Shown here piece by piece: positions 1,078 through 17,384 of a DNA stretch of 32,000 nt. A program made the position numbers and the translations under genes. The stretch covers positions 1,650,001 to 1,682,000 of the forward strand of contig OY969938.1 of the NCBI GenBank assembly GCA_963704755.1. The letters run 5' to 3'. This DNA is from an uncultured Chloroflexia bacterium. Lineage in GTDB: Bacteria > Chloroflexota > Anaerolineae > Anaerolineales > Anaerolineaceae. Within the stretch, counting starts at the first letter, position 1; the number at the start of each line of letters is the position of its first letter. The notes under the pieces were generated by a model. The model was not told where the DNA came from, ran no database searches, and saw only the letters and a list, made by a program, of their open reading frames with translations.

Positions 1078-1087
1078 GAGGGCAGCC

Positions 1088-1591: not shown

Positions 1592-1638
1592 AATTTGAGG
1601 TATGGATACGGTCGATGACCGTATCCATACCTCAAATT
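1592..1638. repeat. Perfect 22-bp inverted repeat / stem-loop with a 3-nt loop, 30 nt upstream of the wzm start
   Basis: aatttgaggtatggatacggtc (1592-1613), loop gat, then gaccgtatccatacctcaaatt (1617-1638). The arms are exact reverse complements. It is followed by cagggaac, with no U-tract. Confidence 0.9.
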
Positions 1639-1667
1639 CAGGGAACTCCTGATTAAGAAGAAGGTGC

Positions 1668-2531: not shown

Positions 2532-2532
2532 C

Positions 2533-3864
2533 ATGGCAAATCCATACGCGATTCAGGTTCAAAAAATAGGTAAACAATACGATATCAACCAGGCCGGGGA
2601 AGCCAGTTATGACACATTGCGCGATCAAATTGCCCATGCACTGACAGCGCCTGTCCGGCGTGTTTTTGGCAGAAATAATCACACCGACGGCATAACGCAA
2701 AAACGCCACGGCAAGGGCAAAGAGATATTTTGGGCTTTGCGGGATGTCAATTTCAATGTCGAGCCCGGCGAGGTGGTAGGGGTCATCGGCCGCAATGGCG
2801 CCGGCAAGAGCACCTTGTTGAAAATCATCACGCGCATCACCGACCCCAGCGAAGGCTCCATTGACCTGTGGGGGCGGGTGGGCTCTTTGCTCGAAGTCGG
2901 CACCGGCTTTCACAAGGAACTCTCCGGTCGCGAGAACGTCTATCTCAACGGTGCGATTCTGGGCATGAAGCGCACCGAAATCGATCGCAAATTCGACGAG
3001 ATTGTCGCCTTTGCCGAAATCGAAAAGTTCATCGATACCCAGGTGAAATTTTATTCCAGTGGCATGGGCGTCCGGCTGGCTTTTGCGGTCGCGGCGCACC
3101 TCGAGCCTGAAATTCTACTGGTAGATGAAGTTCTGGCGGTAGGCGACGCTGCATTTCAAAAGAAATGCCTGAATAAAATGGAAGACGTTGGCCGCCAGGG
3201 CCGTACCATTCTCTTCGTTTCGCATCACATGCCCTCCATTACCCGCCTGTGCCAGCGCGCCATCCTGTTAGATGGCGGCCATGTGCTTCAAGACGGGCCG
3301 GCCTATCAAGTCGTCAGCGATTACCTGACCAGCGGTTTAGGCACTTCTTCGGAGCGTATTTGGGAAGACAGGATCGATGCCCCCGGCAACGAGATCGTCC
3401 GCCTGAATTCGGTACGGGTGCGCAACAGCCGCGGACAGATCAGCGATACGATCGACATCCACGAACGGGTGGGCATTGAGATGGACTATGAGGTGCTGGT
3501 GGACGGGCAAATCCTCTACCCGCACTTCACCGTCCACAACGAGGAGGGCCAATGGCTGTTCGTCTCCTTCGATACCGATAAAGAATGGCTGCGCAAACCG
3601 CGACCGCGCGGACATTACCAGAGCACCGGCTGGATCCCAGGTAATTTACTCACCGAAGGGACCATGATGATCGGACCGGCTATGCGCACCGAAGAACCTT
3701 ATCGCCTGCACTTTCACGAACGCGACGCAGTCGCCTTTCAGGTGGTGGAAAACAACAATTCCTCGGGTGCCCGGGCCGACCATCCCGGCCATTTTCCCGG
3801 CATTATCCGCCCGCTGCTCGACTGGGAAACCCGTTATCACACCAATGGATCGGGCGGAAAATGA
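2533..3864 (+). CDS. wzt: Polysaccharide ABC exporter ATP-binding protein with a C-terminal Wzt_C-like carbohydrate-binding extension
   Basis: Walker A is GRNGAGKST, the ABC signature is YSSGMGVRLAFA, and Walker B is ILLVDEVLAVGD. About 180 extra C-terminal residues (roughly nt 3325-3861: ...EIVRLNSVRVRNSRGQISDTIDIHERVGIEMDYEVL...AVAFQVVE) have the alternating beta-strand pattern typical of Wzt C-terminal glycan-binding domains. Confidence 0.9.
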   Translation: MANPYAIQVQKIGKQYDINQAGEASYDTLRDQIAHALTAPVRRVFGRNNHTDGITQKRHGKGKEIFWALRDVNFNVEPGEVVGVIGRNGAGKSTLLKIITRITDPSEGSIDLWGRVGSLLEVGTGFHKELSGRENVYLNGAILGMKRTEIDRKFDEIVAFAEIEKFIDTQVKFYSSGMGVRLAFAVAAHLEPEILLVDEVLAVGDAAFQKKCLNKMEDVGRQGRTILFVSHHMPSITRLCQRAILLDGGHVLQDGPAYQVVSDYLTSGLGTSSERIWEDRIDAPGNEIVRLNSVRVRNSRGQISDTIDIHERVGIEMDYEVLVDGQILYPHFTVHNEEGQWLFVSFDTDKEWLRKPRPRGHYQSTGWIPGNLLTEGTMMIGPAMRTEEPYRLHFHERDAVAFQVVENNNSSGARADHPGHFPGIIRPLLDWETRYHTNGSGGK

Positions 3865-4769
3865 ACCCGGCAACTCCGCGGTTAAGCATTGGCCTTCCGG
3901 TTTTCAATGGCGAGCGCTACCTCAGCCAGGCCCTGGATTCGATCCTCGCCCAAAGCTTCCCCGATTTCGAGGTCATCGTTTCAGACAACGCCTCCACCGA
4001 TGCATCCGTCAGCATCGTCGAAACCTACATGGCTCGCGACGGGCGCATCAGCCTGTTCAAAAATTCACCTAACCGCGGGGCTGCCTGGAATTACAACTTC
4101 GTCTTCTCCCAGGCGCGCGGTGAATATTTCAAGTGGGCCGCCCACGACGATTTGTTACAGCCCACTTTTCTGGAGAAGTGCGTCGATATCCTCGACCAGG
4201 ACCCGTCAGTGGTTTTGGTCCATCCCAAAACTAAAATAATCGATGAAAACAGCCAGGTCATCGGTTCCTACGAGACCAGAATGGATACGACCGGGCAGTT
4301 GCCCAGCCAACGTTTTCACGATTTGGTGCTGACCAGGCACCCCTGCACTGCCGCCTTTGGGGTATCGCGCCGCAATATTCTCCAAAAGACACCTCTGATT
4401 GCCTCCTACGTCGGTTCTGACCGGGTGTTACTGGCCGAAATGGGACTTTACGGCCGTCTCATCGAACTGCCGGATTACCTGTTCTATCGCCGGGACCATC
4501 CCGGCGCTTCCATCCGGCGCTTTAATCCGTACGAACGCCAGGCCTGGTTCGATCAAAAGGGTGGACAGCGCGTATCGTTCCCGACCTGGCGGATCGGATG
4601 GGAGTATTTTCGGGCAGTGAACCGCGTCCCGATCGGGCTGCACGAAAAAATCGCATGCTATCGTTTGTTGGCCTTCTGGCTGCGCTGGGACCGTAAACGA
4701 TTAACGCACGACCTTGCCGTAGCCAGCGGACGTCTCATCAAAACCAAAAAGGAGCAGAGGGTACTATGA
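3861..4769 (+). CDS. Glycosyltransferase family 2
   Basis: The GT2 N-terminal signature is LSIGLPVFNGERYLSQALDSILAQSFPDFEVIVSDNASTDAS, and the DxD-like motif is AAHDDL. It has an ATGA overlap with the wzt stop. Confidence 0.88.
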   Translation: MNPATPRLSIGLPVFNGERYLSQALDSILAQSFPDFEVIVSDNASTDASVSIVETYMARDGRISLFKNSPNRGAAWNYNFVFSQARGEYFKWAAHDDLLQPTFLEKCVDILDQDPSVVLVHPKTKIIDENSQVIGSYETRMDTTGQLPSQRFHDLVLTRHPCTAAFGVSRRNILQKTPLIASYVGSDRVLLAEMGLYGRLIELPDYLFYRRDHPGASIRRFNPYERQAWFDQKGGQRVSFPTWRIGWEYFRAVNRVPIGLHEKIACYRLLAFWLRWDRKRLTHDLAVASGRLIKTKKEQRVL

Positions 4770-5539
4770 AAGTAGCAATCCTGGCCGGTGGATATGGATC
4801 CCGTCTGGCGGAAGAAACCGAGATCAAGCCTAAACCGATGGTAGAAATTGGCGGCCACCCGATGTTGTGGCACATCATGCGCTACTACTACTCGTATGGG
4901 TACAAAGATTTCGCGATTGCCCTCGGTTACAAAGGAGAAATCATCAAGCGATACTTTATGGATTACTACACCCTCAACGGCGACATGACCGTTGATTTCA
5001 GAACCGGTTCGGTCAAGTCACAAAACGGCAAGCATCTGGATTGGACCATCGAAATGATCGACACCGGCCAACAGACCCAGACCGGCGGGCGCATCAAACG
5101 CCTGGCGCAGGCCGTGGGCAACGAAACGTTTATGCTCACCTGGGGTGACGGCGTTTCGGACGTGGACCTGGATAAATTACTGGCTTTCCACCGCGCGCAC
5201 GGCAAACTGGCCACCCTCACCGCGGTGCGCCCCCCGGCGCGCTACGGCTACATGAACTTCAATGGTGACCAGGTGGTGGAATTCATGGAAAAAGCCCAAC
5301 TTATGGAAGGTTGGATCAACGGCGCCTTCTTCGTATTGGAACCCGGAATTTTTGATTACATCGATGGCGACGACACAGTCTGGGAGCACGAACCGCTCGA
5401 ACGCCTGGCACATGATGGCCAGTTGATGGCCTACCGGCACGACTCGTTCTGGCAGTGCATGGACACGCTGCGCGAAAAGCACATCCTCGAATCGATCTGG
5501 CAAAGCGGCCATGCTCCCTGGAAAAAATGGGAGGATTAA
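4766..5539 (+). CDS. rfbF: Glucose-1-phosphate cytidylyltransferase (CDP-glucose synthesis)
   Basis: 257 aa. MKVAILAGGYGSRLAEETEIKPKPMVEIGGHPMLWHIMRYYYSYGYKDFAIALGYKG is the characteristic RfbF N-terminus (GGxGxRL nucleotidyltransferase loop). The length is typical for RfbF. It has an ATGA overlap with the upstream GT2. Confidence 0.9.
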   Translation: MKVAILAGGYGSRLAEETEIKPKPMVEIGGHPMLWHIMRYYYSYGYKDFAIALGYKGEIIKRYFMDYYTLNGDMTVDFRTGSVKSQNGKHLDWTIEMIDTGQQTQTGGRIKRLAQAVGNETFMLTWGDGVSDVDLDKLLAFHRAHGKLATLTAVRPPARYGYMNFNGDQVVEFMEKAQLMEGWINGAFFVLEPGIFDYIDGDDTVWEHEPLERLAHDGQLMAYRHDSFWQCMDTLREKHILESIWQSGHAPWKKWED

Positions 5540-5541
5540 AG

Positions 5542-6585
5542 ATGCGCGTTCTTCTTACAGGACATCATGGATACATCGGAACGATTTTAGCGCCTATGTT
5601 ATTGGAAGCCGGCCACGAAGTGGTCGGCCTGGACAGCGACCTTTTTGCGGCCTGCCAGTTCGGCCCCTGGCAAGATCCCGTTCCCTCGATCCACAAGGAT
5701 ATCCGCGACGTTACCGTGGAAGACCTGGACGGGTTCGATGCCGTCCTGCACCTGGCCGGCCTGTCCAACGACCCCCTGGGAGACTTGAACCCCGAGCTGA
5801 CCTACGAAATCAATTACCGCGCCTCGGTCCGCCTGGCCAAGCTGGCCAAACAAGCCGGGGTCGACCGGTTCATCTTCTCCTCATCGTGCAGCAATTACGG
5901 CGCCGCCGGAGACGATTTACTGACCGAAGATGCAGCTTTCAACCCGGTCACGCCCTACGGTAAATCGAAAGTGCTGGTCGAGCAGGATGTGGCGGCCCTG
6001 GCCAACGAGCATTTCTCGCCTGTCTTCCTGCGCAACGCCACCGCTTACGGGGTTTCGCCCTTCCTGCGCTTCGACCTGGTGCTCAACAACCTGGTCGCCT
6101 GGGCTTTTACCACCGGCAAAGTTTACCTCAAGAGCGACGGCTCGCCCTGGCGCCCGGTAGTTCATATCGAAGATATCTCGCGCGCATTTGTGGCTGCCCT
6201 GCAGGCCCCGCGGCAGATCGTCCATAACCAGGCCTTCAACGTGGGCCGCACCACTGAAAACTACCGCGTTTCCGAGATCGCCCAAATCGTCTCCGAAACG
6301 GTACCGGGCTGCCGGGTTGAATACGCTCCCGATGCCGGGCCGGATAAACGCAATTACCGGGTGGACTGCACCAGGATCAGCCAGGTTTTGCCCGAATTCC
6401 AGCCGCAGTGGACCGTCCGCAAGGGCGCCCAGGAGCTTTACGAGGCCTATACTCGTATCGGCGTTACCCTGGAAGACTTCGAAGGGCCGCATTTCAAACG
6501 CCTCGCCCACATTCGCCAATTGCTGGCCAACGACCAACTGGATACTGCTCTGCGCTGGAATCAAAAAGAGCCGCAAAAGACTTAA
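5542..6585 (+). CDS. NAD-dependent epimerase/dehydratase (extended SDR) acting on a nucleotide sugar; exact reaction unknown
   Basis: I placed the start at ATG 5542, which is preceded by GGAGGA. The 5455 ORF extension overlaps rfbF. It has the Rossmann motif LLTGHHGYIGT and the catalytic YxxxK as PYGKSK. It does not show the TGxTGFKG / YSxSK pattern I associate with canonical CDP-glucose 4,6-dehydratase RfbG. Confidence 0.85.
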   Translation: MRVLLTGHHGYIGTILAPMLLEAGHEVVGLDSDLFAACQFGPWQDPVPSIHKDIRDVTVEDLDGFDAVLHLAGLSNDPLGDLNPELTYEINYRASVRLAKLAKQAGVDRFIFSSSCSNYGAAGDDLLTEDAAFNPVTPYGKSKVLVEQDVAALANEHFSPVFLRNATAYGVSPFLRFDLVLNNLVAWAFTTGKVYLKSDGSPWRPVVHIEDISRAFVAALQAPRQIVHNQAFNVGRTTENYRVSEIAQIVSETVPGCRVEYAPDAGPDKRNYRVDCTRISQVLPEFQPQWTVRKGAQELYEAYTRIGVTLEDFEGPHFKRLAHIRQLLANDQLDTALRWNQKEPQKT

Positions 6586-6668
6586 TCGATCAGGAGCATA
6601 TATAAAGGAAGGCGCAGCTACTTGCGCTTATCGACGTTCACAGAGACCGGTAAGAGACCAACAAAGAA

Positions 6669-7844
6669 ATGGGTGGAATGGTGGATTTGTCGTCAGGGAC
6701 ACAATCGCTCGCACAAATAAGCCGTGAATATTTACAAAAAAGCCTTTACTTCCTCCGGCGAATCCACAAACGTATCGAAAACCGGTTCAACGACTGGCAG
6801 TTTTCTTTGATCTGGAAAGCCTATGTTTCTCCCCGGCAATGGGTTCGGCATTGGCTCTTACCGGTCGCACAAACCATCCAACGGGTAGGCAAACTGTATT
6901 TCAAGCGCGGAGATAATTCGGTAATTATTTTGACCGGCGAAGCGGCCGTCACCAAAGAGCCTTTACAAATTGCCTACCTGGGCAGAAAAAAATCATTGAA
7001 TTATTTCGCCTTCAGCCTGTTCGGCAACGAGCCATTCGAGCGCAAAGAAATCGGCAAAATTCCACTGAGGACGTTGAAAAAAACCGCTCAAAAGCTCGCC
7101 CGCCAGGCCGACATGGTCATCATCGAACGCAACGACCTGCTGAAGTGGAAACCCACCTGGGGCGATTGGATCGAGACCCCCTCGACAGTGCGGCACCTCT
7201 TCAAAATTGAGCCGGGCGAACCGTGGGCTTCCATCGAGGACCGTTTCCGCGAGCAGAAACGCTATATCCATAAGGCTCAAAAAGAAAATTTCACCCTGGC
7301 GACCAGCCACAAGAAAGAAGACCTGCTCTTCTTTTACGACCAGATGCTCGTTCCCCTGGCCAAAAACAAATACGATGATCGCGCCCAAATTGCCGGGGTT
7401 AAGTATTACCTCGAGCTGTTCTCCAAAGGATTCATCACCTTTGTGGTCGCCCCGGATGGGCAGCGGGTGGCCGGGTCCTTGAACATTGTCGATGGCGATA
7501 TATACCTGGGCATGGTCCTGGGTGTGCTGAACGGCAACGATGCCTGGGTCCAAAAAGGGGTTACATCGCTTTTATACCTTTCGGACCTGCAGTATTGTCA
7601 CCAACACGGCCTGCGCCGCATCGATGTCGGCCCAAGCCTACCTTTCGCCAACGCCGGACTGTTTCGCTACAAATCCATGTGGGGCTACCGGCCCGCCCCC
7701 GACCCATGGAACTATTTGAACTGGCTGATCTGGCTGCCAAAGCAGTCTCCGGCAACCACGAGCTGGTTAGGCCGGCACCAATTTCTGACAGAATTTTGCC
7801 GCTTCTCGAGCACCGAAGTCGCTAATATCAGCCGAGCGGTTTAG
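6669..7844 (+). CDS. FemABX / Acetyltransf_6-like (two-GNAT-domain) acyl- or aminoacyl-transferase family protein, paralogue 1 of 3
   Basis: 391 aa. The C-terminal half has a FemAB/BioF2-CelD-like layout: basic K/R-rich block (KRYIHKAQKENF), FFYDQM, PDGQRVAG, LNGNDAWVQKG, RRIDVG, and LFRYKSMWGYRP at the end. It is colinear with the next two genes. Assignment is by eye only. Confidence 0.55.
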   Translation: MGGMVDLSSGTQSLAQISREYLQKSLYFLRRIHKRIENRFNDWQFSLIWKAYVSPRQWVRHWLLPVAQTIQRVGKLYFKRGDNSVIILTGEAAVTKEPLQIAYLGRKKSLNYFAFSLFGNEPFERKEIGKIPLRTLKKTAQKLARQADMVIIERNDLLKWKPTWGDWIETPSTVRHLFKIEPGEPWASIEDRFREQKRYIHKAQKENFTLATSHKKEDLLFFYDQMLVPLAKNKYDDRAQIAGVKYYLELFSKGFITFVVAPDGQRVAGSLNIVDGDIYLGMVLGVLNGNDAWVQKGVTSLLYLSDLQYCHQHGLRRIDVGPSLPFANAGLFRYKSMWGYRPAPDPWNYLNWLIWLPKQSPATTSWLGRHQFLTEFCRFSSTEVANISRAV

Positions 7845-7872
7845 AAGGACCCATCGAAACGCGAATTTTATC

Positions 7873-9042
7873 TTGAAAAAATCCATCCTGAACGGTTTAC
7901 AGCGTAAATACAATACTGTTCGTGAGCGTACTTTGAGGGAATTGGACAAAAATTTTAACCGCTTCACTCACGAATTACTGTGGCGGCTTTACGCCAATCC
8001 CCAGAGCTGGCGCTACCGCACCTTTTTAAGCCCCGCTCACCAGCTCCAGCTCCTGGGCAAACTGCTCTTCAAACCCCATTCAGCCGAGATCATCCTCACC
8101 GAGGGGATCCAAGCCGAGACCGGCCAGCCTTTGCGGGTGATCTACATCGGAACGAGCATTTCCTACAGCCAGTTTGTGTATTTATTGTTCGCCGATCAGC
8201 AAGTCACCCGGACCAACCTGGGAAGCTGCCACATTCTGCGCCAGCATCAAACCGCCGCCCGGCTGGCGAAAGATGCCGACCTGGTCATACTGGAGCGCAA
8301 CAGCCTGCTGAAGTGGGCGCCTTCCTCCGGCGTCTGGGCCAGTACCCCTGTCGATATCCAGATGATCATCGATTTCGATGCGGAAATGACCTGGGAGAAA
8401 TACGAAAAGTCGGTCAAACGTTCCATGGGCAACAACATCCGTAAGGTCCGCAAGGCGGGTCTCCAGCTTAAATTGGCCAACCTGGAAGAGAACCTGGACA
8501 ATTTTTACGACAACATGCACGTGCCCTATATCGAACAGCGCCATAAAGGCCACATCATGGCCACTTCGTTGAGTTCCCTCCAGAATATCCAGGGTCAATC
8601 CGAGCTAAAAATGATCTACCTGCCGGATGGGAAAGCCATCGCCGGGTATTTTTGTTACCGTCGTGGGAAAGTCAGCCTGTGGATCGTCAACGGTATTTTA
8701 GACGGCGACGAAACCTGGCTGGAGCAAGGGGCTCTTTCGGCGCTGTATTACCTCGGCCTGCGCCAGGATTTCGAACGGGGCATCTACCGCATCGACTGCG
8801 GTGGGGTGGCCCCATTCGAAAACGATCCGATTTTCATCCACAAAAAGCGCTGGGGCTTCCACCCGGCCCAAAACCCCTGGGGTTATACGGATTGGTTCTT
8901 TTGGGCGCCGGACGAAAATTCGCCGGCGGCCGGCTGGATCCAGAGCCACCCGCCCATCGCTGAGTTTGCCCGGTTTTCACCCAATTTTCAGCGAGTGAAA
9001 GAAAAAGTAGAGGACCAGAAAATTCCTCAGGCGGCTGCCTGA
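7873..9042 (+). CDS. FemABX / Acetyltransf_6-like family protein, paralogue 2 of 3
   Basis: 389 aa with a TTG start (no in-frame ATG nearby). Shared blocks are NNIRKVRKAGLQL, NFYDNMHVPYIEQRHKG, PDGKAIAG, LDGDETWLEQG, YRIDCGG and IFIHKKRWGFHP. Confidence 0.55.
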   Translation: MKKSILNGLQRKYNTVRERTLRELDKNFNRFTHELLWRLYANPQSWRYRTFLSPAHQLQLLGKLLFKPHSAEIILTEGIQAETGQPLRVIYIGTSISYSQFVYLLFADQQVTRTNLGSCHILRQHQTAARLAKDADLVILERNSLLKWAPSSGVWASTPVDIQMIIDFDAEMTWEKYEKSVKRSMGNNIRKVRKAGLQLKLANLEENLDNFYDNMHVPYIEQRHKGHIMATSLSSLQNIQGQSELKMIYLPDGKAIAGYFCYRRGKVSLWIVNGILDGDETWLEQGALSALYYLGLRQDFERGIYRIDCGGVAPFENDPIFIHKKRWGFHPAQNPWGYTDWFFWAPDENSPAAGWIQSHPPIAEFARFSPNFQRVKEKVEDQKIPQAAA

Positions 9043-9136
9043 TCGCCGTATCCAATTTTATCGTTATTGACGTTCGTATCCCCCGAAAATGCCCCCTTAA
9101 CCGGAATGAAATCGCCTGTATCGGCAGGAGCGTTTT

Positions 9137-10297
9137 TTGAAGGAAATTCCAAGTAATCTCAGGTGCATAATGGAAATAACGGGTTATATCGGTAAAGTTT
9201 ATGAGCACATTGTCTCTACGAAAAAAAGAATATTTACCCGCTTCGACCACTGGTTCACCGGGTTTTTCATCAAATGGATTACTTCCCTTTCAGGGCACCC
9301 GGGCGCCTGGCAAGAACGGATCCTGCTTCCCAAGTTTCATTTTTTGTATACCACTGAAAAAGATTTCATAAAAATGTATGAATTCCGGGTTTTCCGGCTG
9401 ATAAGCCAGGAGAACCAACCGGATATCCCTCATGAAGTGGTATATATCAGCGCCAAAGCCGACTATGCCAACCTGGGAAGACAGTTCTTCAATAATGCAC
9501 CCTACCGGGCGCAAGAGATCGAAAGAATCCCTCGAAAAAACTTGAATGCCGAAATAGAAAAACTAGCCGAAAACGCTGACTTCCTGGCTGCAACCCGCAG
9601 CGAACACAGCCATTGGGTGCCATCCTACGGCAAGTGGCTGACCTTCCCCTCGGTTTTATACCTCATTCGAGATTTCCAACCGGGGGAAACCTGGGAACAG
9701 ATCGAACGAGATCTAAAGAAGAAGAATTCGAGCAATATCCGTAAAGTCATTAAAGCCGGTTTCCGATTAGAAACCAGCCATTCCAAAGATGATCTCGAAT
9801 TCTTTTTATACCGTATGCACAAACCCTACATGGCCTCACGCCATGGTGAACGGGCCGAAATCGCCTCGCTGGAGAATTTGAACGAAGTTTTTGAAAGCTC
9901 CGAACTGCGCTTTATTATCACCCCGGAGGGCGAGCGGGTAGCCGGGGGCCTGATTTAACGGTCTGCCGATTTGGTACTCTGGCTATTTATTGGCCTGCTG
10001 GATGGCGACAATACCTGGCTGGAAAAAGGAGCCGTTACGGCAATGTATTACCTGGGGATCAAAGATGATTTTGACCGAGGTATCCGCCGGATCAATGCCG
10101 GTTCAGCCGATGTATTCATAGACGACCCGTTATTTTTCCACAAGAAGCGCTACGGGTTTTACCCGACCACCGCGGCCTGGGTTTATACCGAAACCTTACT
10201 TTGGTCACCGCGACCTTACCCGGCTGTGGAACGTTTTTTCGATACCGGCAACTATTTCACCGAATTTATCCGGGCTTCCTCTGAAGGAGTACGATGA
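9137..10297 (+). pseudogene. FemABX / Acetyltransf_6-like paralogue 3 of 3, interrupted by a single in-frame TAA (9956-9958)
   Basis: ORFs 9137-9958 and 9971-10297 are in the same frame. Read through, AGGLI*RSADLVLWLFIGLLDGDNTWLEKG aligns without gaps to paralogue 2 AGYFCYRRGKVSLWIVNGILDGDETWLEQG. The stop sits where paralogue 2 has Tyr. The downstream fragment has only a TTG start and no SD. A possible true start is TTG 9137 or ATG 9170. Confidence 0.6.
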
Positions 10298-10314
10298 CCG
10301 CCAGAAAGCGGCGG

Positions 10315-10343
10315 TTGACAAACGAAAATTTGCCGGATGTATT
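10315..10343 (+). promoter_or_regulatory. Weak sigma70-like promoter candidate (TTGACA-17 nt-TGTATT) in the 240-nt gap before the AsnB-like gene
   Basis: There is an exact TTGACA at 10315-10320, a 17-nt spacer, then TGTATT (4/6 match to TATAAT). The host sigma-factor consensus is unknown, so this is only a pattern match. Confidence 0.15.
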
Positions 10344-10538
10344 TGCCATGACAATGCTGCAAAACCCCGTTTGCGTGTAAAACCCACCATTCAACCTTTG
10401 CACTATTCGTCTTCTCGCTGAAACAAAAATTTTTCCAGGGCATCATCTCATCCACATGAAATGCCAGGATGGACGGATGAAGTACCGGTTTATTGATTTG
10501 TGTTTTAGCCATTGAAACAAGAAAGAGAGGGAAACTCA

Positions 10539-12464
10539 ATGCCAGGGATCTGCGGGATCATCTCAAAAACAGACCGACAAGAAATAATAGATGAAACCAT
10601 TCGGCAAATGGCCCACCCCATGTTGCGTACTCCAACGTCGCAAGGTGACAAAATTTCGGATAACGGCTACGCCATAGCCAGTGTCGCTATCGACGATAGC
10701 CGGCCCGTCTGGAGTGAACAAGATATTACCCTGGCGATCGCAGGCGACTTTACCGACCGGGATGCACTGGTCAACCGCTTACGCGCCGCCGGCAGCCCGG
10801 TTACGGCAAAGGCCCCGCTGAGCGAAATCCTCTTGAAGGCTTATCGTTGTTTTGGCCTGGATGCCCTGTGTGGCTTGAATGGGGTTTACACCATCGCGAT
10901 CTGGGAAAATGTAAGTGAACAGCTCACCCTGGTTACGGATCGCATCGGCATCGGGAAAATGTACTTTTGGCAAAACGGGCGCAAGTTCTATTTTGCCAGC
11001 GAACAAAAATCGATCTGCCTGCTGCCGGAATTTAGCTCCCGCATCAATCAACTGGCCGTGATGGATTTCCTCATTGCCGAGAATGCCCTGGATGACCGCA
11101 CCTACTTCGAAGATATCAAAATCATGGACGCGGCCCAGGTCGTCGTTTTCCGAGATGGGCAGCTTTCCAAGCGGCGTTATTGGGATTTTTCCTTCTACCA
11201 ATCGGGCGATACGGTCCTGCAGCCCGAGGCGTACATCAATGGCCTGGCCTACCTGGTGAGACAGGCCGTCCTCCGGCGGGTCCATTCCAATGCAACCCTG
11301 CTTTTGACCGGCGGTTTGGACTCGCGCAGTGTCGCCGGCGCCTGGAAGGATGTGGCCCCCGATATTCCCATCCTGACCAATACGATCGGCCAACCTGGCT
11401 GCCGGGATGTGTGGCGTGCGCGTGAAATTTCAAAGAACATTGGCCTGAACCACACCACCATCCCTGCCAACAATTCTTACCTGGCCAATTACGCCGCCGA
11501 ATGCGTCTGGCGTACCGAAGGTAACATCAATGTCCACGCATCCTGGATCTTTGCCGAAGATAATTACCTGACGAAAAACAAAATAAAATACGCCATGACG
11601 GGCATCTATGGCGATATGATCGGTGGTCGCTTCCGCCCGCCGGAATTGCTTTCGGCCCGGACGAACGAAGACCTGGAAAAATTCCTGGTCACGCATCCCT
11701 GGATCAACAACTCCTTCGCTCAGCAAATTTTACGCCCAGAAATTTTCCAGCGCTACCAGGGACAAACCTACCAGACCCTGTGGGACTTAACCCAAGAAGC
11801 CAATTCCAAGATCCCCTGGTTCCAATTCGATTACATGGTCTTTCGCGCGTTGGTCCGCCGTGAGGCCACCAGCGTGGACGTCCTCTCGGACAATACCTGG
11901 GTGCTGGACCCGTTCATCGATAAAGACCTGATCGATTACGTTTTCCACCAGCCGCCGGGATACCGCAACGGCCCGGCTCTGTACAAGAAAATGATTACCC
12001 AATATTTCCCCGATGTCGCCTCGGTGGGCTATGGAAACGACGATACTTCGCTGCGCTTTCAGGTGGCCTACCAGAACAACGAACCCCTCAAGTGGCTGGC
12101 GCGCACCGGCCGGCGCATCCGCAACCGGCTTACGCCGGATACCACCTCCCTGCTCAGCGGCGATCGCCCCTATTGGAATGTGCCGTTGAATGGCAGTATC
12201 CGCAACGGCTCGCGCGCTTTCGTCGAGGAGGTATTTGCACAAAGTGAGTATTACGACGACGTCTTTGATGTGAAACAAGTCAGGCAATTGCTCGACGATC
12301 AAATGACCGGCAAAATCAACGATTACCGCGCCATTGGCTACATCCTGACCTTTTCCTTATGGCGGAAAATGTTCTGCGACAGGCAGTACAGCCCGGAAGG
12401 TTATTCCGCTATCCCTGCGGCCGAATTGCAAATGTCGCGGGTTCACGACCCGATCAAACAATAA
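10539..12464 (+). CDS. Asparagine synthetase B-like glutamine amidotransferase/adenylating enzyme (WbpS-like glycan amidotransferase candidate)
   Basis: 641 aa from ATG 10539, with GAGAGGG upstream. It has an N-terminal Ntn-type ICGI motif and a PP-loop in LLLTGGLDSRSVAG. Length and domain order match AsnB-family proteins common in polysaccharide loci. Confidence 0.87.
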   Translation: MPGICGIISKTDRQEIIDETIRQMAHPMLRTPTSQGDKISDNGYAIASVAIDDSRPVWSEQDITLAIAGDFTDRDALVNRLRAAGSPVTAKAPLSEILLKAYRCFGLDALCGLNGVYTIAIWENVSEQLTLVTDRIGIGKMYFWQNGRKFYFASEQKSICLLPEFSSRINQLAVMDFLIAENALDDRTYFEDIKIMDAAQVVVFRDGQLSKRRYWDFSFYQSGDTVLQPEAYINGLAYLVRQAVLRRVHSNATLLLTGGLDSRSVAGAWKDVAPDIPILTNTIGQPGCRDVWRAREISKNIGLNHTTIPANNSYLANYAAECVWRTEGNINVHASWIFAEDNYLTKNKIKYAMTGIYGDMIGGRFRPPELLSARTNEDLEKFLVTHPWINNSFAQQILRPEIFQRYQGQTYQTLWDLTQEANSKIPWFQFDYMVFRALVRREATSVDVLSDNTWVLDPFIDKDLIDYVFHQPPGYRNGPALYKKMITQYFPDVASVGYGNDDTSLRFQVAYQNNEPLKWLARTGRRIRNRLTPDTTSLLSGDRPYWNVPLNGSIRNGSRAFVEEVFAQSEYYDDVFDVKQVRQLLDDQMTGKINDYRAIGYILTFSLWRKMFCDRQYSPEGYSAIPAAELQMSRVHDPIKQ

Positions 12465-12575
12465 ATCATCGACAAAGCCGGGTAACTAGAGCTTGGGCAA
12501 GAAGCTCCCGAAATACCGGGCAATTTCAAAGAAAAGCTGAAATCAAGACCACCAAGTAAAGGAACTATCTGGACC

Positions 12576-13838
12576 ATGGATGAGCAAACTCTAGAATTAA
12601 CCCAGGCCGCCCCCTACCGCATCGAGCCAGTCTGCCGATCTTGCGGATCTGGTCATCTAGTCAAGATTATGTCCTTTGGACAGACCCCCCTGGCCGACCG
12701 TCTGGTGACGCCGGAGCAACTGGATTCACCAGACCTTGTCGCTCCTCTGGATTTGTTTTTCTGCCCCGACTGCTCGCTGGTTCAAATCTCGGCCACCGTT
12801 GAACCAGACGTGCTCTTTGGACAGAATTATCCCTATTTTTCTTCAGTTTCCGCCACCTTGATGCAGCATTCGCGTGAAAACGCGCTCGAACTGATCGAAA
12901 AACGGAACCTGGGACCCAACAGCCTGGTGATCGAACCGGCCAGTAACGACGGCTACATGCTGCGCAATTTCGTCGAAGCCGGTATTCCCGTCCTCGGCAT
13001 CGACCCGGCCAGCGGCCCGGCCAGCGTGGCCCAGGCCTCCGGTGTTCCTACCCTGAACACATTCTTCGGGTTGAAACTTGCCAAAGAACTGGCCCGCCAG
13101 AATACATTCGCCGATGTGATCATTGCCAACAACGTTTTGGCCCATGTCGCCGACCTGAACGGCTTCGTCGAGGGGGTCAAGACCGTCCTCAAGCCAGACG
13201 GGGTTGCCGTCATGGAAATGCCTTACGTGGCCGACCTGATCGGCAAGACCGAGTTCGACACGATTTATCACCAACATCTGTGCTACTTCTCGATCACCGC
13301 CCTCGATCGCTTATTCCGCTCGCACGGCCTGTTCCTCAATGACGTACGCCGTCTCTCAATTCACGGGGGTTCGTTACGGCTATATGTCGAAAAAACCGAT
13401 AACCAGTCCGCGTTTGTGCGGGGCTTGCTGCGGGACGAGAGCCAGGGAGCGGCCTGCCTGGAGTATTACCAGGCATTCGCTGCCCGTGTCGCAAAGATCC
13501 GCGCGGACCTGAATGCCTTACTGAGCGACCTCAAAGGACAAGGCGCCCGGATCGCAGCGTATGGTGCTGCTGCCAAAGCCTGCACTCTTCTGGCCTACTG
13601 CCAGGTGGATGCGCGCTCCATCGATTATGTCGCGGACCTGAATACACATAAACATGGCCTGTTCATGGGCGGGAATCATCTCCCGATTGTTCCTGCAAAT
13701 AAGCTGGCTGCCGACCAACCCGACTATGTTTTACTCCTGGCATGGAATTTTGCAGATGAAATCCTGAAACAACAAAAGGATTATCGCGACCAGGGAGGAA
13801 AATTCATCGTACCCATCCCGCAAGTACGGGTAATCTGA
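12576..13838 (+). CDS. SAM-dependent NDP-sugar C-methyltransferase family protein (TylC3-like; Zn-ribbon + class I MT + C-terminal MT-associated domain)
   Basis: The N-terminal four-Cys pattern is CRSCGSGHL...[11 protein letters not shown]. The SAM motif is of the E-P-A-S-N-D-G type ([12 protein letters not shown]), followed by ANNVLAHV and then YHQHLCYFS. The C-terminal Rossmann-like block is [14 protein letters not shown]...[11 protein letters not shown]. Confidence 0.85.
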
Positions 13839-13839
13839 T

Positions 13840-14958
13840 TTGCAAAAAACAATTTACAAAACTTATCGCTATATCCGCTCAAAGGCTGGCTACGTGAAAC
13901 GACAATTAATCAAACCCAATGACAATGCTGAATGGACTGAAGGCCTTCCCCCAGGTTTTTCACCCCAATTTTTGGAACGGGGTAATCATAAAATAAATGA
14001 AAAACAACTTAAGCGCGCAAAATTCAAGCACCTCTCCGGATGGAAAGAGGCAGGTGCCTATCGCATAGAAATCCCCCTGAGCCGTGGAAATAAATGGCGT
14101 CTGGTTTTCAAAGACGCGAATTACCACACGGACCAGCTTCCGGCGCTTAAGGGATTGCCTTATATTCCCGGGCCACCCGAATATGCATTGTTCCATCACC
14201 CACCCCAAGCGCTTTCCGCATTTCTTCCCCAATGCCTCTGGGCAGAAGAGACCGAGCCCGGCAAACGCTACCGTTACCTTTTCGAAGACCTGACCGGTGA
14301 ATTCGGCCGGATCCGGGGTGACGAGGGTTTGCTCAAAGCCGTCCACATGCTCCTGCCGCTGCAAAACGCCTTGCAGGACTGGCAGCCAGGATCCGACGAT
14401 AACCTGCTGCACTACAGCGGGGCTTCGGTCCGGGCTCTTGAAGAGTATGTATTCCATTCGATCAGCCGCTATTGCGAACAATATCCGGGTGATACCGTAA
14501 CCGACTTTCTCCATCGCTGGCCTGAGATTCTCAAGGTCCACGAGCTGTTCGAGCGAATTCCGGCCTTTGATAGCACTGTCGTCCACGGCGATCTGAATAC
14601 CACCAACATCTACGTTCACAAGGAAGACCCCAGCATATTTCGCCTGGTGGACTGGGAATGGGCCGGTTGGGGGAACCCCCATCTGGACCTGGCCTGTTTA
14701 CTCAAACGGGTCAGCCCTGAATTCGAAGAAAAGGCCTTACAGGTTTATGCCCAAGACCGCCCGGCGACAACCTTGTTCGAACATCAATTCGCCTACCACT
14801 GGCATCAATTGGACCGCGGTCTTCTGGACGCCAGCTATGTTGCCGCTCAAATTCTGGACAATCCATATCGGCCAGATTGGGACATCGTCGGCTTCATGGA
14901 AGATTCGCTTAGCGAAGTTATCCGCCGCACACAAATTCTCCTTTCCCTCTCAGGTTGA
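13840..14958 (+). CDS. Aminoglycoside-phosphotransferase/choline-kinase-fold kinase (APH family)
   Basis: 372 aa with a TTG start 1 nt after the preceding stop. The Brenner motif HGDLNTTN is at about nt 14584, followed by the metal-binding LVDWEWAGWGNPHLDLA. Confidence 0.75.
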   Translation: MQKTIYKTYRYIRSKAGYVKRQLIKPNDNAEWTEGLPPGFSPQFLERGNHKINEKQLKRAKFKHLSGWKEAGAYRIEIPLSRGNKWRLVFKDANYHTDQLPALKGLPYIPGPPEYALFHHPPQALSAFLPQCLWAEETEPGKRYRYLFEDLTGEFGRIRGDEGLLKAVHMLLPLQNALQDWQPGSDDNLLHYSGASVRALEEYVFHSISRYCEQYPGDTVTDFLHRWPEILKVHELFERIPAFDSTVVHGDLNTTNIYVHKEDPSIFRLVDWEWAGWGNPHLDLACLLKRVSPEFEEKALQVYAQDRPATTLFEHQFAYHWHQLDRGLLDASYVAAQILDNPYRPDWDIVGFMEDSLSEVIRRTQILLSLSG

Positions 14959-14964
14959 TTTATA

Positions 14965-16014
14965 TTGTTAGACACCAACGACTTCATCATTTGGAATCTC
15001 ACCCACCAGCAGACCGTTACAATCGGCTCACAGTCTCTTTTCAACATTCTTGGCCGGCTCAAAAATCCACTAATCGTCCTGGAGTTTTATTTCCGGGTCA
15101 ACCAGGGCGAAGAAAAGACCATACTGTTCAACATTAGCGACCGAAATTATGGCCGGCTGGAGCGGACAGGCGACTTTAACATCAATTCGATCGACATAAG
15201 TGAACTCAAAGAGACCAACCAGCTATACCTGCGGGTGGAGTATGAAGACCATTGCGAAGAAACATCCATCATTTTTCATACTCGCCGGGTCGAGATCGAA
15301 CAGCCTCGGTTTACGCTCAATTTGGACGGCATTGGTGAACCGCAGGAAGTTGGCCAGGTGGTGGACGGTTACTGGCAGGTCGATCACAGCTCGAGCGCAA
15401 CGCCCAATATCTATGTCCCCCCGGCCGAAGCCGGGTATGACCGGATTTTCCTCTTCGGCAGCCAGCAGTGGACCAGCGGCTACCAAATCACGGCCCGTCT
15501 GGAAGCAACCGCCTGGGCCCACCGGGTTCACCTGTTGGGGCTGCTGTTCAAATGGCAAGCTCACGACAAAGGCGACGGCAGCTATCTCCCGCTAAACTGG
15601 AATACCGGCCTGGGCATCTTTGATTCCCGCAGCGAGACGTTACGAATTCGCTACGGCGTGAACGTGCGCAAGGAAAATGGCCACAAAGTTGGCGATACCC
15701 TGGTCGGTGAAGCTCCCCTGGATCCCACCAGCGCTTCGTCTTTTTCCAAATCGCGTTTTAACATACTGCGCCGTGAACCCAGGCGGGATTACCTGGAACT
15801 AAAAAGACCATACTGGTTCCACCTGATCGTTCACCCCCAAATCCATTCTCTGGCCGTCTGGGCGGATGATTGCCAGCGCCCGGCTAAACCGCAGGTTGTG
15901 ATCAAGAATCCCACCGAATTGTTATCTTTTGGCTCTGTTGGGGTTATTGCCTATAACTGTGGAATACGGATTTATAACTTCGAAGTCAGCCCATACAACC
16001 CACTTTTGCCGTAG
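14965..16014 (+). CDS. Hypothetical cytoplasmic protein; C-terminal concanavalin-A-like (LamG/DUF1080-like) beta-sandwich suspected
   Basis: 349 aa with a TTG start and no signal peptide or TM segment. The C-terminal 220 aa show a DUF1080-like progression (DGYWQVD ... YQITARLEA ... LLGLLFKW ... WFHLIVHP...LAVWADD ... GSVGVIAYNCGIRIYNFEV). The fold call is by eye only. Confidence 0.4.
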   Translation: MLDTNDFIIWNLTHQQTVTIGSQSLFNILGRLKNPLIVLEFYFRVNQGEEKTILFNISDRNYGRLERTGDFNINSIDISELKETNQLYLRVEYEDHCEETSIIFHTRRVEIEQPRFTLNLDGIGEPQEVGQVVDGYWQVDHSSSATPNIYVPPAEAGYDRIFLFGSQQWTSGYQITARLEATAWAHRVHLLGLLFKWQAHDKGDGSYLPLNWNTGLGIFDSRSETLRIRYGVNVRKENGHKVGDTLVGEAPLDPTSASSFSKSRFNILRREPRRDYLELKRPYWFHLIVHPQIHSLAVWADDCQRPAKPQVVIKNPTELLSFGSVGVIAYNCGIRIYNFEVSPYNPLLP

Positions 16015-16142
16015 ACACCGGAACAAACCTTTTCTACAGCGTTTTATCACTGATCCCAAATTTTTTGCAAGAAACTAGCCTGACCACACTTATTTTTTCA
16101 TCGATCCAGCCAGGCAGGATCCTAAACGAAGGGAAATAACCC

Positions 16143-17384
16143 ATGAAATCGTTCCAACCCAATGCCACCACCGTGACCCGCTATGGAACCCATAACCTGA
16201 TCGACCAGAGCTGCCCGAACTGTGGCGCGTTCAGTATGCGTGGTTTCTACGCCGCCCGTAATGTTCCCATTAACGACGTCCGGGTCGTCCACAGCCGCCA
16301 GGAAGCATTGGATTTTCCGCGGGGCGATATTCACCTGGCTTACTGCTGGAAATGCGGCTTCATTACCAACGTTTCTTTCGACCCGGCTACGGTCACTTAC
16401 TCGCCAGAGTTCGAGGAAACCCAGGGCTATTCGGATACGTTCAACGCCTTCCACCAACGCCTGGCCACCTACCTGATCGACAATTACGACTTGCACGAAA
16501 AGAAAATTCTGGAGATCGGCTGCGGTAAAGGCGAATTTCTGGCGATGTTATGCGAAGCCGGTAACAACAGCGGGATCGGCTTCGACCCGGCCTTCGTCCC
16601 CGAACGCAAGCCGCAGATCAGCCGCGGCCAGGTTGAATATATTGCCGACCTGTACTCCGAAAAATACGCCGACATCGAAGCCGACTTCGTGGTCTGCAAG
16701 ATGACCCTCGAACACATTCCCCAGACGCGCGAATTCGTCAGCACGCTCCGCCGGGCCTTGGGCGACCGCGGTGAGACCGGGGTCTTCTTCCAAATTCCGG
16801 AAGTGTTCCGCATCCTACGCGAGCTGGCTTTCTGGGACATCTATTACGAACATTGCTCATATTTCAGCGCCGGCTCGCTCGCCCGGCTTTTCCGCAAGTG
16901 CGGCTTCGATGTGCTGGACCTGTGGACCGACTACGACGACCAGTACCTGATGATCGAAGCCCGGCCCGGCGTAAGCGGCCCGCTGATCCCGCCCCTGCCC
17001 CAGGAGGACGACCTGCCCCAGCTTTTCCCCCTGGCCGGGTATTTCTCCCAATCGGTCAAGACTTGCTTGCAGACCTGGCAAACCCGCATCAGCGAATACC
17101 ATCGCGACGGCCTGCACGTGGTCCTGTGGGGCGGCGGATCCAAAGCCGTGGCCTTCCTCTCCACCCTGGGCATCGCGGAAGAGATCGAATATGTGGTGGA
17201 TATCAACCCGCACAAACACGGCTCTTTCATCGCCGGCTCCGGGCAAGAGGTGGTCGCTCCGGAATTTATGAAAGAATACCACCCCGATATCGTCATCGTC
17301 ATGAATCCGGTATATGTGGAAGAGATCCGCGCCACTTTAGCCGAGATGGACCTCAGCCCCGTTCTGGTGCCGGTCAATGAGTGA
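16143..17384 (+). CDS. Zn-ribbon SAM-dependent methyltransferase (C-methyltransferase-like architecture), tandem paralogue A
   Basis: 413 aa. Motifs are CPNCG...CWKCGFITN, SAM motif ILEIGCGKGEFL, GFDP, CKMTLEHI, FQIPE, WDIYYEH, and a C-terminal VVLWGGGSKAVAFL...DIVIVMNPVY. Confidence 0.8.
   Translation: MKSFQPNATTVTRYGTHNLIDQSCPNCGAFSMRGFYAARNVPINDVRVVHSRQEALDFPRGDIHLAYCWKCGFITNVSFDPATVTYSPEFEETQGYSDTFNAFHQRLATYLIDNYDLHEKKILEIGCGKGEFLAMLCEAGNNSGIGFDPAFVPERKPQISRGQVEYIADLYSEKYADIEADFVVCKMTLEHIPQTREFVSTLRRALGDRGETGVFFQIPEVFRILRELAFWDIYYEHCSYFSAGSLARLFRKCGFDVLDLWTDYDDQYLMIEARPGVSGPLIPPLPQEDDLPQLFPLAGYFSQSVKTCLQTWQTRISEYHRDGLHVVLWGGGSKAVAFLSTLGIAEEIEYVVDINPHKHGSFIAGSGQEVVAPEFMKEYHPDIVIVMNPVYVEEIRATLAEMDLSPVLVPVNE

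Follow-up and report, generated by a model that had tools for sequence, protein, structure and literature searches.

Why would a bacterial glycan locus carry a row of diverged FemABX-like genes that leads directly into a gene for an AsnB-like enzyme? FemX-type enzymes are textbook peptidoglycan enzymes, which normally add amino acids to cell-wall precursors. The arrangement lies in the window, which is the whole 32-kb stretch of DNA analysed here, and its relevant features are as follows.

1668..3864, + strand: Wzm/Wzt ABC exporter with a Wzt_C glycan-cap-binding domain (Pfam ABC2_membrane, ABC_tran, Wzt_C)
4766..6585, + strand: glucose-1-phosphate cytidylyltransferase (RfbF) and SDR epimerase/dehydratase (probable start near 5536), immediately upstream of the array
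6669..7844, + strand: predicted FemX-like tandem-GNAT transferase, paralogue type A, 391 aa, intact ORF
7873..9042, + strand: predicted FemX-like tandem-GNAT transferase, paralogue type B, 389 aa, intact ORF with a TTG start in the source-genome annotation
9137..10297, + strand: predicted FemX-like paralogue type D, broken by an in-frame stop, probable start ATG 9170
9956..9958, + strand: in-frame TAA within paralogue D (codon 274)
10539..12464, + strand: predicted AsnB-like adenylating enzyme with a degenerate glutaminase site, 641 aa (Pfam GATase_7 and Asn_synthase)
12576..19831, + strand: TylC3-type C-methyltransferase, APH-like kinase, conserved 349-aa protein of unknown function and three further methyltransferase paralogues (Pfam Methyltransf_13/14/23, APH)
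28253..29086, + strand: CE4 polysaccharide deacetylase (Pfam Polysacc_deac_1)

Three paralogues in a glycan locus and their fold

The sequence-only reading had described three consecutive genes with products that align end to end, roughly a third identical by eye and sharing six motif blocks. Alignment confirmed the colinearity and all six blocks and gave a pairwise identity of 29–32%; BLASTP E-values among the three proteins (2e-70, 1e-62, and 9e-69) are far beyond chance, the first belonging to types A and B, which are 31% identical. The first two genes are intact ORFs, but the third is split by an in-frame TAA. Type A has orthologues of 57% and 62% identity in loci L001 and L002, respectively, and type B, which matches P0004 exactly in the protein collection searched, has orthologues of 50% and 49% in the same loci.

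The surroundings had been taken for a glycan locus, and the NDP-sugar genes, the Wzm/Wzt exporter, and the glycan-type neighbours bear this out. RfbF scores 355 bits with TIGR02623, above the cut-off, and the SDR gene matches Pfam Epimerase; both are conserved at 81–88% identity in loci L001 and L004 and at 52–65% in L010, which belongs to a distant lineage. The exporter is 83–90% identical in L001 and L004, where the downstream module also has the same gene order, with orthologues in L010. The CE4 deacetylase has a weak match to TIGR03006 (XrtA-system deacetylase, 39 bits), and by analogy with VimE (PMC7468200) it may supply a sugar with a free amine.

Pfam and NCBIfam models score the window copies weakly or not at all. 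For Acetyltransf_6 (PF13480), with a gathering threshold of 22, copy A reaches 24.6 bits and copy B 19.3 bits, and the Pfam scan gave no match in either fragment of copy D. FemAB (PF02388) is matched by none of the three window proteins, and TIGR03019 (FemAB-family, XrtA/PEP-CTERM-associated, VimA-like) stays below its cut-off of 260, with 28.2 bits for A and 19.1 for B. Among the 69 family members, 47 match Acetyltransf_6 (E up to 0.01), 7 match FemAB weakly, and 7 match FemAB_like. Proteins with Acetyltransf_6 are usually annotated as acyl-CoA acyltransferases.

A profile of the family matched Weissella viridescens FemX with an E-value of 4.7e-10 over profile positions 138–315, and the alignment terminates on a [Y/H/F]-K pair of the family that faces F304-K305 of FemX. 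Catalysis by FemX centres on Lys305 (PMC12945691). The aligned Lys is invariant in the family (69/69 members, preceded by H, Y, or F in 65) and is found in window copies A, B, and D, as K335 in A.

The AlphaFold model of copy A (pLDDT 94.8, pTM 0.89) comprises two alpha/beta domains, residues 83–180 and 186–356, in the manner of a tandem GNAT, while the N-terminal 80 residues form an extra basic helical hairpin (pI 9.6–11.7). Foldseek searches with this model returned FemX first (3e-9), followed by Sbb17/Sba18 (6e-9), L-PGS/MprF, and FemA, with a probability of 1.00 for FemX, FemA, MprF, and Sbb17. The best matches are all aminoacyl-tRNA-dependent tandem GNATs, and they outrank the acetyl-CoA tandem GNATs. 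Since the TM-scores are only 0.36–0.47, the likeness to FemX is one of fold and motif and not a close superposition. The confident model and the family profile assign the window paralogues to the FemX/FemABX tandem-GNAT fold, in agreement with the FemABX/Acetyltransf_6 double-GNAT type suggested from sequence. These proteins define an uncurated subfamily that current Pfam and NCBIfam models barely detect. Its close relatives, most of them full-length, fall into about 50 clusters (50% identity), with about 1,500 further, more distant clusters around them.

It is possible, but rather unlikely in our view, that these proteins are acyl-CoA-dependent N- or O-acyltransferases (Acetyltransf_6, CelD/BioF2-like), which add acetyl or acyl groups to the glycan with an acyl or site specificity for each copy. 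Acetyltransf_6 is the sole Pfam family above threshold, the acetyl-CoA enzymes VipF, Eis, and the clavulanate tandem GNAT are among the significant Foldseek matches, and the literature presents VimA as a putative acetyl-CoA transferase (PMC7468200). However, the canonical CoA pyrophosphate-binding motif [QR]xxGx[GA] is seen in just 1 of the 69 members and missing in the other 68, and the proteins are strongly basic; the alignment of the invariant Lys with the catalytic residue of FemX and the preference of the top structural matches for aminoacyl-tRNA also argue against acyl-CoA.

Array variation and the interrupted copy

Four orthologous types of Fem-like copy, A to D, were distinguished, and the four syntenic loci carry from one to four copies: A-B-D in the window, with D interrupted, A-B-C in L001, A-B-C-D in L002, and C alone in L004. 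The third copy is of type D in the window and of type C in its closest relative. The types keep the same order across loci, and orthologues are only 45–70% identical. The triplet had been regarded as a unit, which does not agree with an array that varies in this way. The proposed stepwise action loses weight too: the four syntenic loci do not have a single paralogue type in common, and this speaks against a chain of strictly ordered steps. We read the changes in copy number and type as variation of the decoration rather than as a fixed three-step line.

The linkage between Fem-like and AsnB-like genes, on the other hand, recurs in other loci. In the window, L001, L002, L004, L005, and L010/L011, a gene for an AsnB-like protein that lacks the Cys comes immediately after one or more Fem-like genes. 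In the distant lineage, L010 has a triplet in the same module, with copies that are 44–49% identical to each other and 24–32% identical to those of the window; it arose independently. Several members of the subfamily occur singly and away from glycan loci (L003, L007/L008).

Of the three window copies, just A and B are intact; a stop codon cuts D short. The TAA divides copy D into 9137–9958 and 9971–10297, both in the same frame; the same codon is the ordinary stop of nine other window genes, and the source-genome annotation has only a 262-aa N-terminal fragment of copy D (P0006). The best relative of copy D is the fourth copy of L002 (P0014), with 49% identity as compared to 29% for the C type of L001, and the catalytic-Lys motif HKKRYG is kept. 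Its GC3 is 0.55, as compared to 0.65–0.69 in neighbouring genes. The column of the stop holds Gln in the L002 copy and Tyr in the B- and C-type copies, so a single-base change to a stop is plausible. Since the sequence downstream of the stop is still 53% identical to the L002 copy (45% upstream), the interruption would be a recent lesion or else a sequencing error.

Could the array consist largely of redundant or decaying duplicates, of which one copy matters, as in L004, while the extras drift to loss and D is already a pseudogene? The in-frame TAA, the single C copy of L004, and the atypically low GC3 of D-type genes in both genomes that carry them are what such decay would leave. We nevertheless consider it improbable, given that A, B, C, and D each persist as orthologous groups in a constant order and at the identities given above, that all types keep the catalytic Lys along with other core residues, that the triplication in L010 is independent, and that copy D is no more diverged after its stop than before it.

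The AsnB-like partner and the proposed function

The gene after the array had been described as an AsnB-family adenylating amidotransferase. The AsnB-like gene and its adenylating PP-loop are present (TGGLDS as compared to SGGLDS in E. coli AsnB), but the glutaminase residues are lost. In the alignment with the E. coli enzyme, Cys2 is replaced by Pro, and Arg49, Asn74, and Asp98 are all replaced; Cys5 of the window protein faces E. coli Phe5, and the same position is Phe in L010 and L005. The gene most likely starts at ATG 10539 (MPGICG..., kept in relatives) and not at TTG 10512, and the N-terminus MPG[IL][CF]G is common to the partner enzymes of five loci. The protein matches Pfam Asn_synthase (E 4e-13), and its NCBIfam scores are all far below the cut-offs (TIGR01536, 127 vs 267; TIGR03108, 108 vs 817; lasso-peptide cyclase model, 94.6 bits, E 5e-27, vs 525). 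With the Cys, Arg, Asn, and Asp of the glutaminase missing, identification as a glutamine amidotransferase was dropped; because the PP-loop is intact and these residues are lost, the protein is predicted to be an adenylating, amide-forming enzyme.

A classical FemX/A/B role in peptidoglycan branches or cross-bridges, with the AsnB-like enzyme acting on the stem peptide and the position in a glycan locus incidental, is very improbable: FemX is the best match by profile and structure, single-copy relatives lie outside glycan loci in Chloroflexota MAGs, and some Gram-positive bacteria use AsnB-like enzymes to amidate meso-DAP, but the array has NDP-sugar genes on one side and the methyltransferase/kinase module on the other, separated from both by short gaps on the same strand, this arrangement is kept in four syntenic loci and was rebuilt in a distant lineage, one to four copies among close relatives are unusual for peptidoglycan chemistry, and the AsnB-like partner is predicted to be unable to use glutamine.

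The reading that we favour, with as much belief as doubt, is that the FemX-type tandem-GNAT transferases are a lineage-specific expansion recruited to a Wzm/Wzt-dependent glycan locus, where, together with the AsnB-like enzyme, they would furnish the glycan with a side group that consists of an amino acid or a short peptide. We infer the donor, acceptor, product, and order of action of the array as follows. Each intact copy would most likely move an aminoacyl group from aminoacyl-tRNA to an amine (or hydroxyl), either on a sugar or on an attached amino acid. The invariant Lys would be used in this transfer, and the basic N-terminal hairpin may help to bind tRNA or the membrane face. The AsnB-like enzyme would most likely adenylate a carboxylate, that of a sugar acid (Kdo or uronate) or the carboxyl of an amino acid, and then couple it as an amide to an amine that is not ammonia from glutamine. 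The acceptor amine and the carboxylate are guesses, because no aminotransferase or sugar dehydrogenase family turned up in any ORF of the window, which has no tRNA gene either.

A bolder proposal, which we regard as doubtful, is that the array works as a cassette for tRNA-dependent, non-ribosomal peptide synthesis on a surface polysaccharide. The types A to D would each add one particular amino acid, the AsnB-like enzyme that lacks the Cys would make the anchoring amide between the sugar carboxylate and the first residue or close a lactam, and gain or loss of cassettes would give variants in peptide length and sequence. If true, the logic of the peptidoglycan bridge would operate on an exported glycan and provide a new source of antigenic variation.

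Comparison with known systems

The window proteins share with W. viridescens FemX and FemABX (PF02388; PDB 1NE9, 4II9) the tandem GNAT fold, the aromatic-Lys pair, and the missing CoA-binding motif, and FemX is their best match by both profile and Foldseek; the picture of several paralogues working on the same product also has its counterpart in FemX, FemA, and FemB. However, sequence identity to FemX is about 10% at a TM of 0.36–0.42, the window proteins are below the Pfam FemAB threshold, the hairpin of about 80 residues stands in place of the FemA coiled-coil insert, and the context is a Wzm/Wzt glycan locus instead of cell-wall genes. β-lactam synthetase, carbapenam synthetase, and lasso-peptide cyclases resemble the AsnB-like partner in keeping the PP-loop adenylation domain without the N-terminal Cys, whereas the context of the partner is glycan biosynthesis, with no peptide precursor or β-lactam genes near its gene.

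Orf11, Sba18, and Sbb17 of the streptothricin-related BD-12 pathway (PDB 9WQW-9WQY) are likewise FemX-like tandem GNATs; they aminoacylate an amino sugar with Gly-tRNA as donor, as Orf11 does (PMC12945691). Sba18/Sbb17 are the second-best structural match (E 6e-9, TMt 0.46–0.47) and a weak profile match (E 2e-3), but they act as a single enzyme in a secondary-metabolite pathway and are shorter proteins without the N-terminal hairpin.

In the Wbp/Vim linking-sugar pathway of Porphyromonas gingivalis and Tannerella forsythia, the FemAB-related VimA, with a presumed donor, determines the amino acid (Ser or Gly) placed on the sugar amine, and it acts beside the AsnB-like WbpS (sugar carboxylate) and the CE4 deacetylase VimE (PMC7468200). 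VimA is present as a single copy, as compared to one to four diverged paralogues here, and WbpS-type enzymes correspond to the eps_aminotran_1 model (XrtA/PEP-CTERM amidotransferase), while the window partner has no catalytic Cys. The window matches the PEP-CTERM EPS trio TIGR03019/TIGR03006/TIGR03108 weakly (28/39/108 bits; cut-offs 260/276/817). Unlike these systems, it has no WbpA/B/E/D genes (2,3-diamino uronic acid) in any ORF and no exosortase or PEP-CTERM families among the Pfam and NCBIfam matches of the ORFs scanned in the 32-kb window.

The type B flagellin glycan locus of Clostridioides difficile makes a peptidylamido-sugar, and its FemAB-like gene CDR20291_0244 adjoins CDR20291_0245, an ATP-grasp ligase; mutants of 0244 were unobtainable, so its role is itself putative (PMC5207246). 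It likewise has a FemAB-superfamily gene beside an ATP-dependent carboxylate-amine ligase, but the ligase is not AsnB-like and there is one Fem-like gene.

The sequence-only reading knew of no characterised O-antigen or S-layer pathway with three such paralogues in series; precedents do exist for a single FemAB-like gene with an AsnB-like or other ATP-dependent ligase (PMC7468200, PMC5207246). Outside peptidoglycan, FemX-type enzymes are known to be used on glycans only in a handful of poorly characterised systems, each with a single gene (VimA, the flagellin glycan of C. difficile, and PEP-CTERM loci). To these the present locus adds a conserved glycan locus with one to four FemX-like genes, always with a glutaminase-dead AsnB-like ligase and invented a second time in another lineage. 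This arrangement points to the modular placing of amino acids or short peptides on polysaccharides, and its natural variants offer a tractable set for studying the donor and acceptor specificity of tRNA-dependent transferases beyond the cell wall.

Gene content and layout of the glycan locus

ORF calling combined with Pfam and NCBIfam scans identified the window as a glycan locus that lies entirely on the plus strand. The glycan setting proposed by the sequence-only reading holds, with Wzm/Wzt, glycosyltransferases, RfbF and Kds genes around the array of Fem-like paralogues.

Genes of the locus in their listed order
1668-3864, +, Wzm/Wzt ABC exporter with a Wzt_C domain
between Wzm/Wzt and RfbF, +, GT2 glycosyltransferase
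4766-5539, +, RfbF, glucose-1-phosphate cytidylyltransferase (TIGR02623, 355 bits)
between RfbF and the paralogues, +, SDR epimerase/dehydratase
6669-7844, 7873-9042 and 9137-10297, +, three Fem-like paralogues (copies A and B and the third copy)
directly after the paralogue array, +, AsnB-like gene
after the AsnB-like gene, +, TylC3-type C-methyltransferase, then APH-like kinase and conserved unknown protein
after the conserved unknown protein, +, three further methyltransferase paralogues
after the methyltransferases, +, GT1 and GT2 glycosyltransferases
after GT1/GT2, +, KdsB, KdsD and KdsA
after the Kds genes, +, three GT4 glycosyltransferases
28253-29086, +, CE4 deacetylase
last, +, Wzy_C/O-antigen-ligase-like protein

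The stretch at 12576-19831 comprises four paralogous Methyltransf_13/14/23-type (TylC3-like) methyltransferases, the APH-like kinase and a conserved 349-aa protein, all of which are kept in L001 and L004, two loci syntenic with the window, and in part in L010, a locus from a distant lineage. The kinase and methyltransferases, taken with the Wzt_C domain, are presumably reminiscent of chain-end capping of the WbdD type. The genes at 22058-25937 and 30204-31682 encode a full set of Kdo supply enzymes (KdsB, KdsA and KdsD, the last with SIS and CBS domains), then a 476-aa protein and the Wzy_C/O-antigen-ligase-like protein; neither the 349-aa nor the 476-aa protein has Pfam, NCBIfam or PDB sequence relatives. 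Upstream of wzm, each of the three syntenic loci (window 106-1598, L001 3712-4895, L004 3347-4619) carries a conserved pair of unknown ORFs, the first of about 320 aa and the second of about 100 aa. In the window, neither ORF matches Pfam, and the 323-aa one also lacks an NCBIfam match.

The G+C content steps from 0.47-0.59 in the exporter-to-methyltransferase half (~1-19800) to 0.59-0.63 in the glycosyltransferase/Kdo half (~19900-30000), which suggests a two-part mosaic. At 5455-5539, 22564-22810 and 24507-24670, the mechanically called ORF starts reach 85-250 bp into the genes before them; since alignments to relatives and profiles begin later (near 5536 for the SDR, near residue 100 for KdsD), the true starts probably lie downstream. 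An Rfam scan of the window found no families and a tRNA scan no tRNAs, and promoter and terminator scans gave counts at chance level. A terminator-like hairpin with a T-run lies just upstream of the third Fem-like copy (9115-9136), and such sites occur at chance level in the region.

Family and fold of the Fem-like proteins

The three genes had been described as colinear paralogues, and the comparison bears this out: pairwise identity is 29-32% (BLASTP E 2e-70, 1e-62 and 9e-69), and all of the motif blocks quoted for them are found in the alignment of the three. Curated models recognize them poorly. Pfam Acetyltransf_6 scored 24.6 bits for copy A and 19.3 for copy B (threshold 22) and did not match the third copy, and NCBIfam TIGR03019 (FemAB family, PEP-CTERM-associated), whose cut-off is 260 bits, gave 28 for copy A and 19 for copy B. 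An exhaustive profile search covering 1.84 billion representative proteins returned 2,157 clusters with an E-value of 1e-3 or lower, among them 1,493 at 1e-10 and 73 at 1e-30, with about 50 clusters representing close, mostly full-length relatives. Word-index homologue searches, which appear to be keyed on the first sequence, recovered no more than 3-4 proteins per search even when given an alignment of 69 sequences; a metagenome scan with the Fem-like alignment found 4 distant relatives only, and a genome-collection scan with the genes a single relative, a Chloroflexota MAG. Among the 69 close members, Acetyltransf_6 matched 47, FemAB 7 and FemAB_like 7, while 28 of 72 more distant members matched TIGR03019 weakly and four matched FemX.

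A PDB sequence search with a shallow 4-sequence profile found nothing, and the 69-sequence profile matched Weissella viridescens FemX (E 4.7e-10, profile positions 138 to 315). At the end of this alignment, an aromatic-Lys pair of the family lies opposite F304-K305 of FemX, in which Lys305 is the key catalytic residue (PMC12945691). The aligned Lys is present in all 69 members, and the residue before it is H, Y or F in 65; the canonical GNAT CoA-binding motif [QR]xxGx[GA] stands at the expected place in just one. Orf11 is known to transfer Gly from Gly-tRNA onto an amino sugar (PMC12945691).

The AlphaFold2 model of copy A built on the 69-sequence alignment (pLDDT 94.8, pTM 0.89) superseded a first run on 6 sequences (pLDDT 71, poor TM-scores). 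In this confident model, a helical hairpin at the N-terminus (residues 10-78) leads into two alpha/beta domains. The best Foldseek matches in the PDB were FemX (E 3e-9) and Sbb17/Sba18 (6e-9), which aminoacylate amino sugars in an aminoacyl-tRNA-dependent manner, then L-PGS/MprF domains, S. aureus FemX and FemA, with acetyl-CoA tandem GNATs at higher E-values than these aminoacyl-tRNA-type matches. The FemABX/Acetyltransf_6-like fold proposed earlier is thus supported by profile, model and structure search; since TM-scores are modest (0.36-0.47), the likeness to FemX is one of fold and motif. The whole proteins and the hairpin are basic, with a pI of 9.6-11.7 for the first 80 residues. Because the system falls below the curated thresholds, we did not place it in TIGR03019, TIGR03108 or Pfam FemAB, and the Fem-like proteins are instead treated as a new branch, so far uncurated, of the FemABX/Acetyltransf_6 superfamily.

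A variable array with a stop-interrupted third copy

We compared the window with loci that carry Fem-like relatives. L001 (a 50-kb Logan contig) shows full synteny over the stretch that runs from the genes before wzm to the methyltransferases, and has three intact copies (387, 379 and 385 aa), with the AsnB-like gene 20 bp after them. L002 (6.3 kb) has four serial copies and then the AsnB-like gene; its fourth copy is annotated as short, but the frame is open for 376 aa. L004, a 198-kb contig, holds the same locus with one copy only between the SDR and AsnB-like genes. In a neighbour-joining tree, the copies of these four loci fall in one clade with four orthologous groups.

Orthologous groups of Fem-like paralogues in the neighbour-joining tree
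Type A: window, L001, L002
Type B: window, L001, L002
Type C: L001, L002, L004
Type D: window third copy, L002 fourth copy

The array states are A-B-D* in the window (the asterisk marking a stop-interrupted D), A-B-C in L001, A-B-C-D in L002 and C alone in L004, with constant order and no type common to all four. The window does contain three paralogues in series, as first described, but copy number ranges from 1 to 4 across the syntenic loci, and the triplet is just one of the forms that the array takes. The D genes have a markedly lower GC3 than their neighbours (0.55 vs 0.65-0.69 in the window, 9170-10297; 0.34 vs 0.52-0.60 in L002, 4210-5340), and the gap between D and the AsnB-like gene is about 240-270 bp, not 20 bp, consistent with D being a later-acquired cassette. 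No conserved element was found in this gap.

While the paralogues are real, the sequence-only reading missed an in-frame TAA at 9956-9958 that interrupts the third gene, and the source genome's annotation holds only its N-terminal 262 aa (protein P0006). At the position of the TAA, the closest orthologue has Gln and the type B and C copies have Tyr, so one base change is enough to create it. Conservation does not fall off behind the stop (53% identity to the D orthologue, vs 45% ahead of it), so the lesion is either a nonsense mutation of recent date or an error of sequencing. Reassignment or readthrough of TAA is unlikely, since it ends 9 other genes in the window. We rejected the reading of the third copy as a strongly decayed orthologue of type C in L001 (29% identity), as it shares 49% with type D in L002, a normal divergence.

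The arrangement recurs outside the syntenic loci. In the more distant lineage of L010 and of L011, the latter from NCBI MAG GCA_002412555.1, three consecutive members (386, 390 and 381 aa) precede an AsnB-like gene, surrounded by orthologues of the window SDR (65%), RfbF (52%), C-methyltransferases (43-58%) and APH-like kinase. These copies are closer to one another (44-49% identity) than to the window copies (24-32%), and their triplet is an independent expansion. Just upstream of this module (922-6726), L010 encodes two large proteins with Flg_new_2 repeats, of 908 and 1002 aa; these may lie at the cell surface and could be targets of glycosylation. A single copy in L005 is directly followed by the same kind of AsnB-like gene, so that tight adjacency of the two recurs, while single genes occur in unrelated contexts in L003 (a Chloroflexota MAG) and L007/L008. 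Nearby pairs of wider-family members in L006 (1780-2928 and 3784-4650) and L016 (6352-6927 and 7904-8443) indicate that duplication in the family is not confined to the loci studied.

The AsnB-like partner and a proposed function

The AsnB-like protein contains GATase_7 and Asn_synthase domains in Pfam, and lies far under every NCBIfam cut-off, including glutamine-hydrolysing asparagine synthase, PEP-CTERM amidotransferase (TIGR03108) and lasso-peptide cyclase. Aligned to E. coli AsnB, its PP-loop TGGLDS is intact, whereas the catalytic Cys2 is replaced by Pro and Arg49, Asn74 and Asp98 are not conserved. Cys5 of the window protein is not the catalytic Cys, because E. coli AsnB has Phe5 at this place and the L010 and L005 proteins likewise have Phe. 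The earlier assignment to an AsnB-family adenylating amidotransferase stands for the PP-loop, but not for the lost glutaminase residues; from this pattern we conclude that the protein is a predicted adenylating, amide-forming enzyme unable to draw ammonia from glutamine. The N-terminus MPG[IL][CF]G (window 10539-10560), common to the partners in the window, L001, L004, L005 and L010, defines, with its non-catalytic position 5, a Cys-less AsnB-like subfamily partnering Fem-like genes. The best PDB sequence relative of the AsnB-like protein is the hydroxyamidotransferase 7YLZ (E 5e-14), and a metagenome scan with the AsnB-like alignment found nothing.

We propose that each intact Fem-like enzyme would transfer an aminoacyl group from aminoacyl-tRNA to a sugar or an attached residue, at an amine or hydroxyl, and that the AsnB-like enzyme would adenylate a carboxylate and couple it to an amine. 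The carboxylate may be that of a uronate, an amino acid or Kdo, for which the window encodes the pathway. The CE4 deacetylase (28253-29086) could supply the free sugar amine, as proposed for VimE. Parallel or alternative decorations are favoured over an obligatory X-then-A-then-B chain, since no paralogue type is universal. The value of the system lies in its modular, recurrent array with a ligase, and in a hypothesis open to test, namely that an exported glycan is decorated with peptides in a tRNA-dependent manner.

The closest functional precedent is the Wbp/Vim pathway, which combines the CE4 esterase VimE, the AsnB-like, uronamide-making WbpS, and VimA, which decides between Ser and Gly as the residue put on the deacetylated amine of a sugar; VimA-like, deacetylase and AsnB-like genes also cluster in PEP-CTERM EPS loci (PMC7468200). 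In the C. difficile peptidylamido-glycan locus, a FemAB-like gene adjoins an ATP-grasp carboxylate-amine ligase (PMC5207246). The present loci differ from these systems in their one to four diverged paralogues, Cys-less AsnB-like partner and N-terminal hairpin, and the window differs in its Wzm/Wzt and CDP-sugar/methyltransferase context and, compared with the Wbp/Vim and PEP-CTERM systems, carries neither Wbp genes nor an exosortase.
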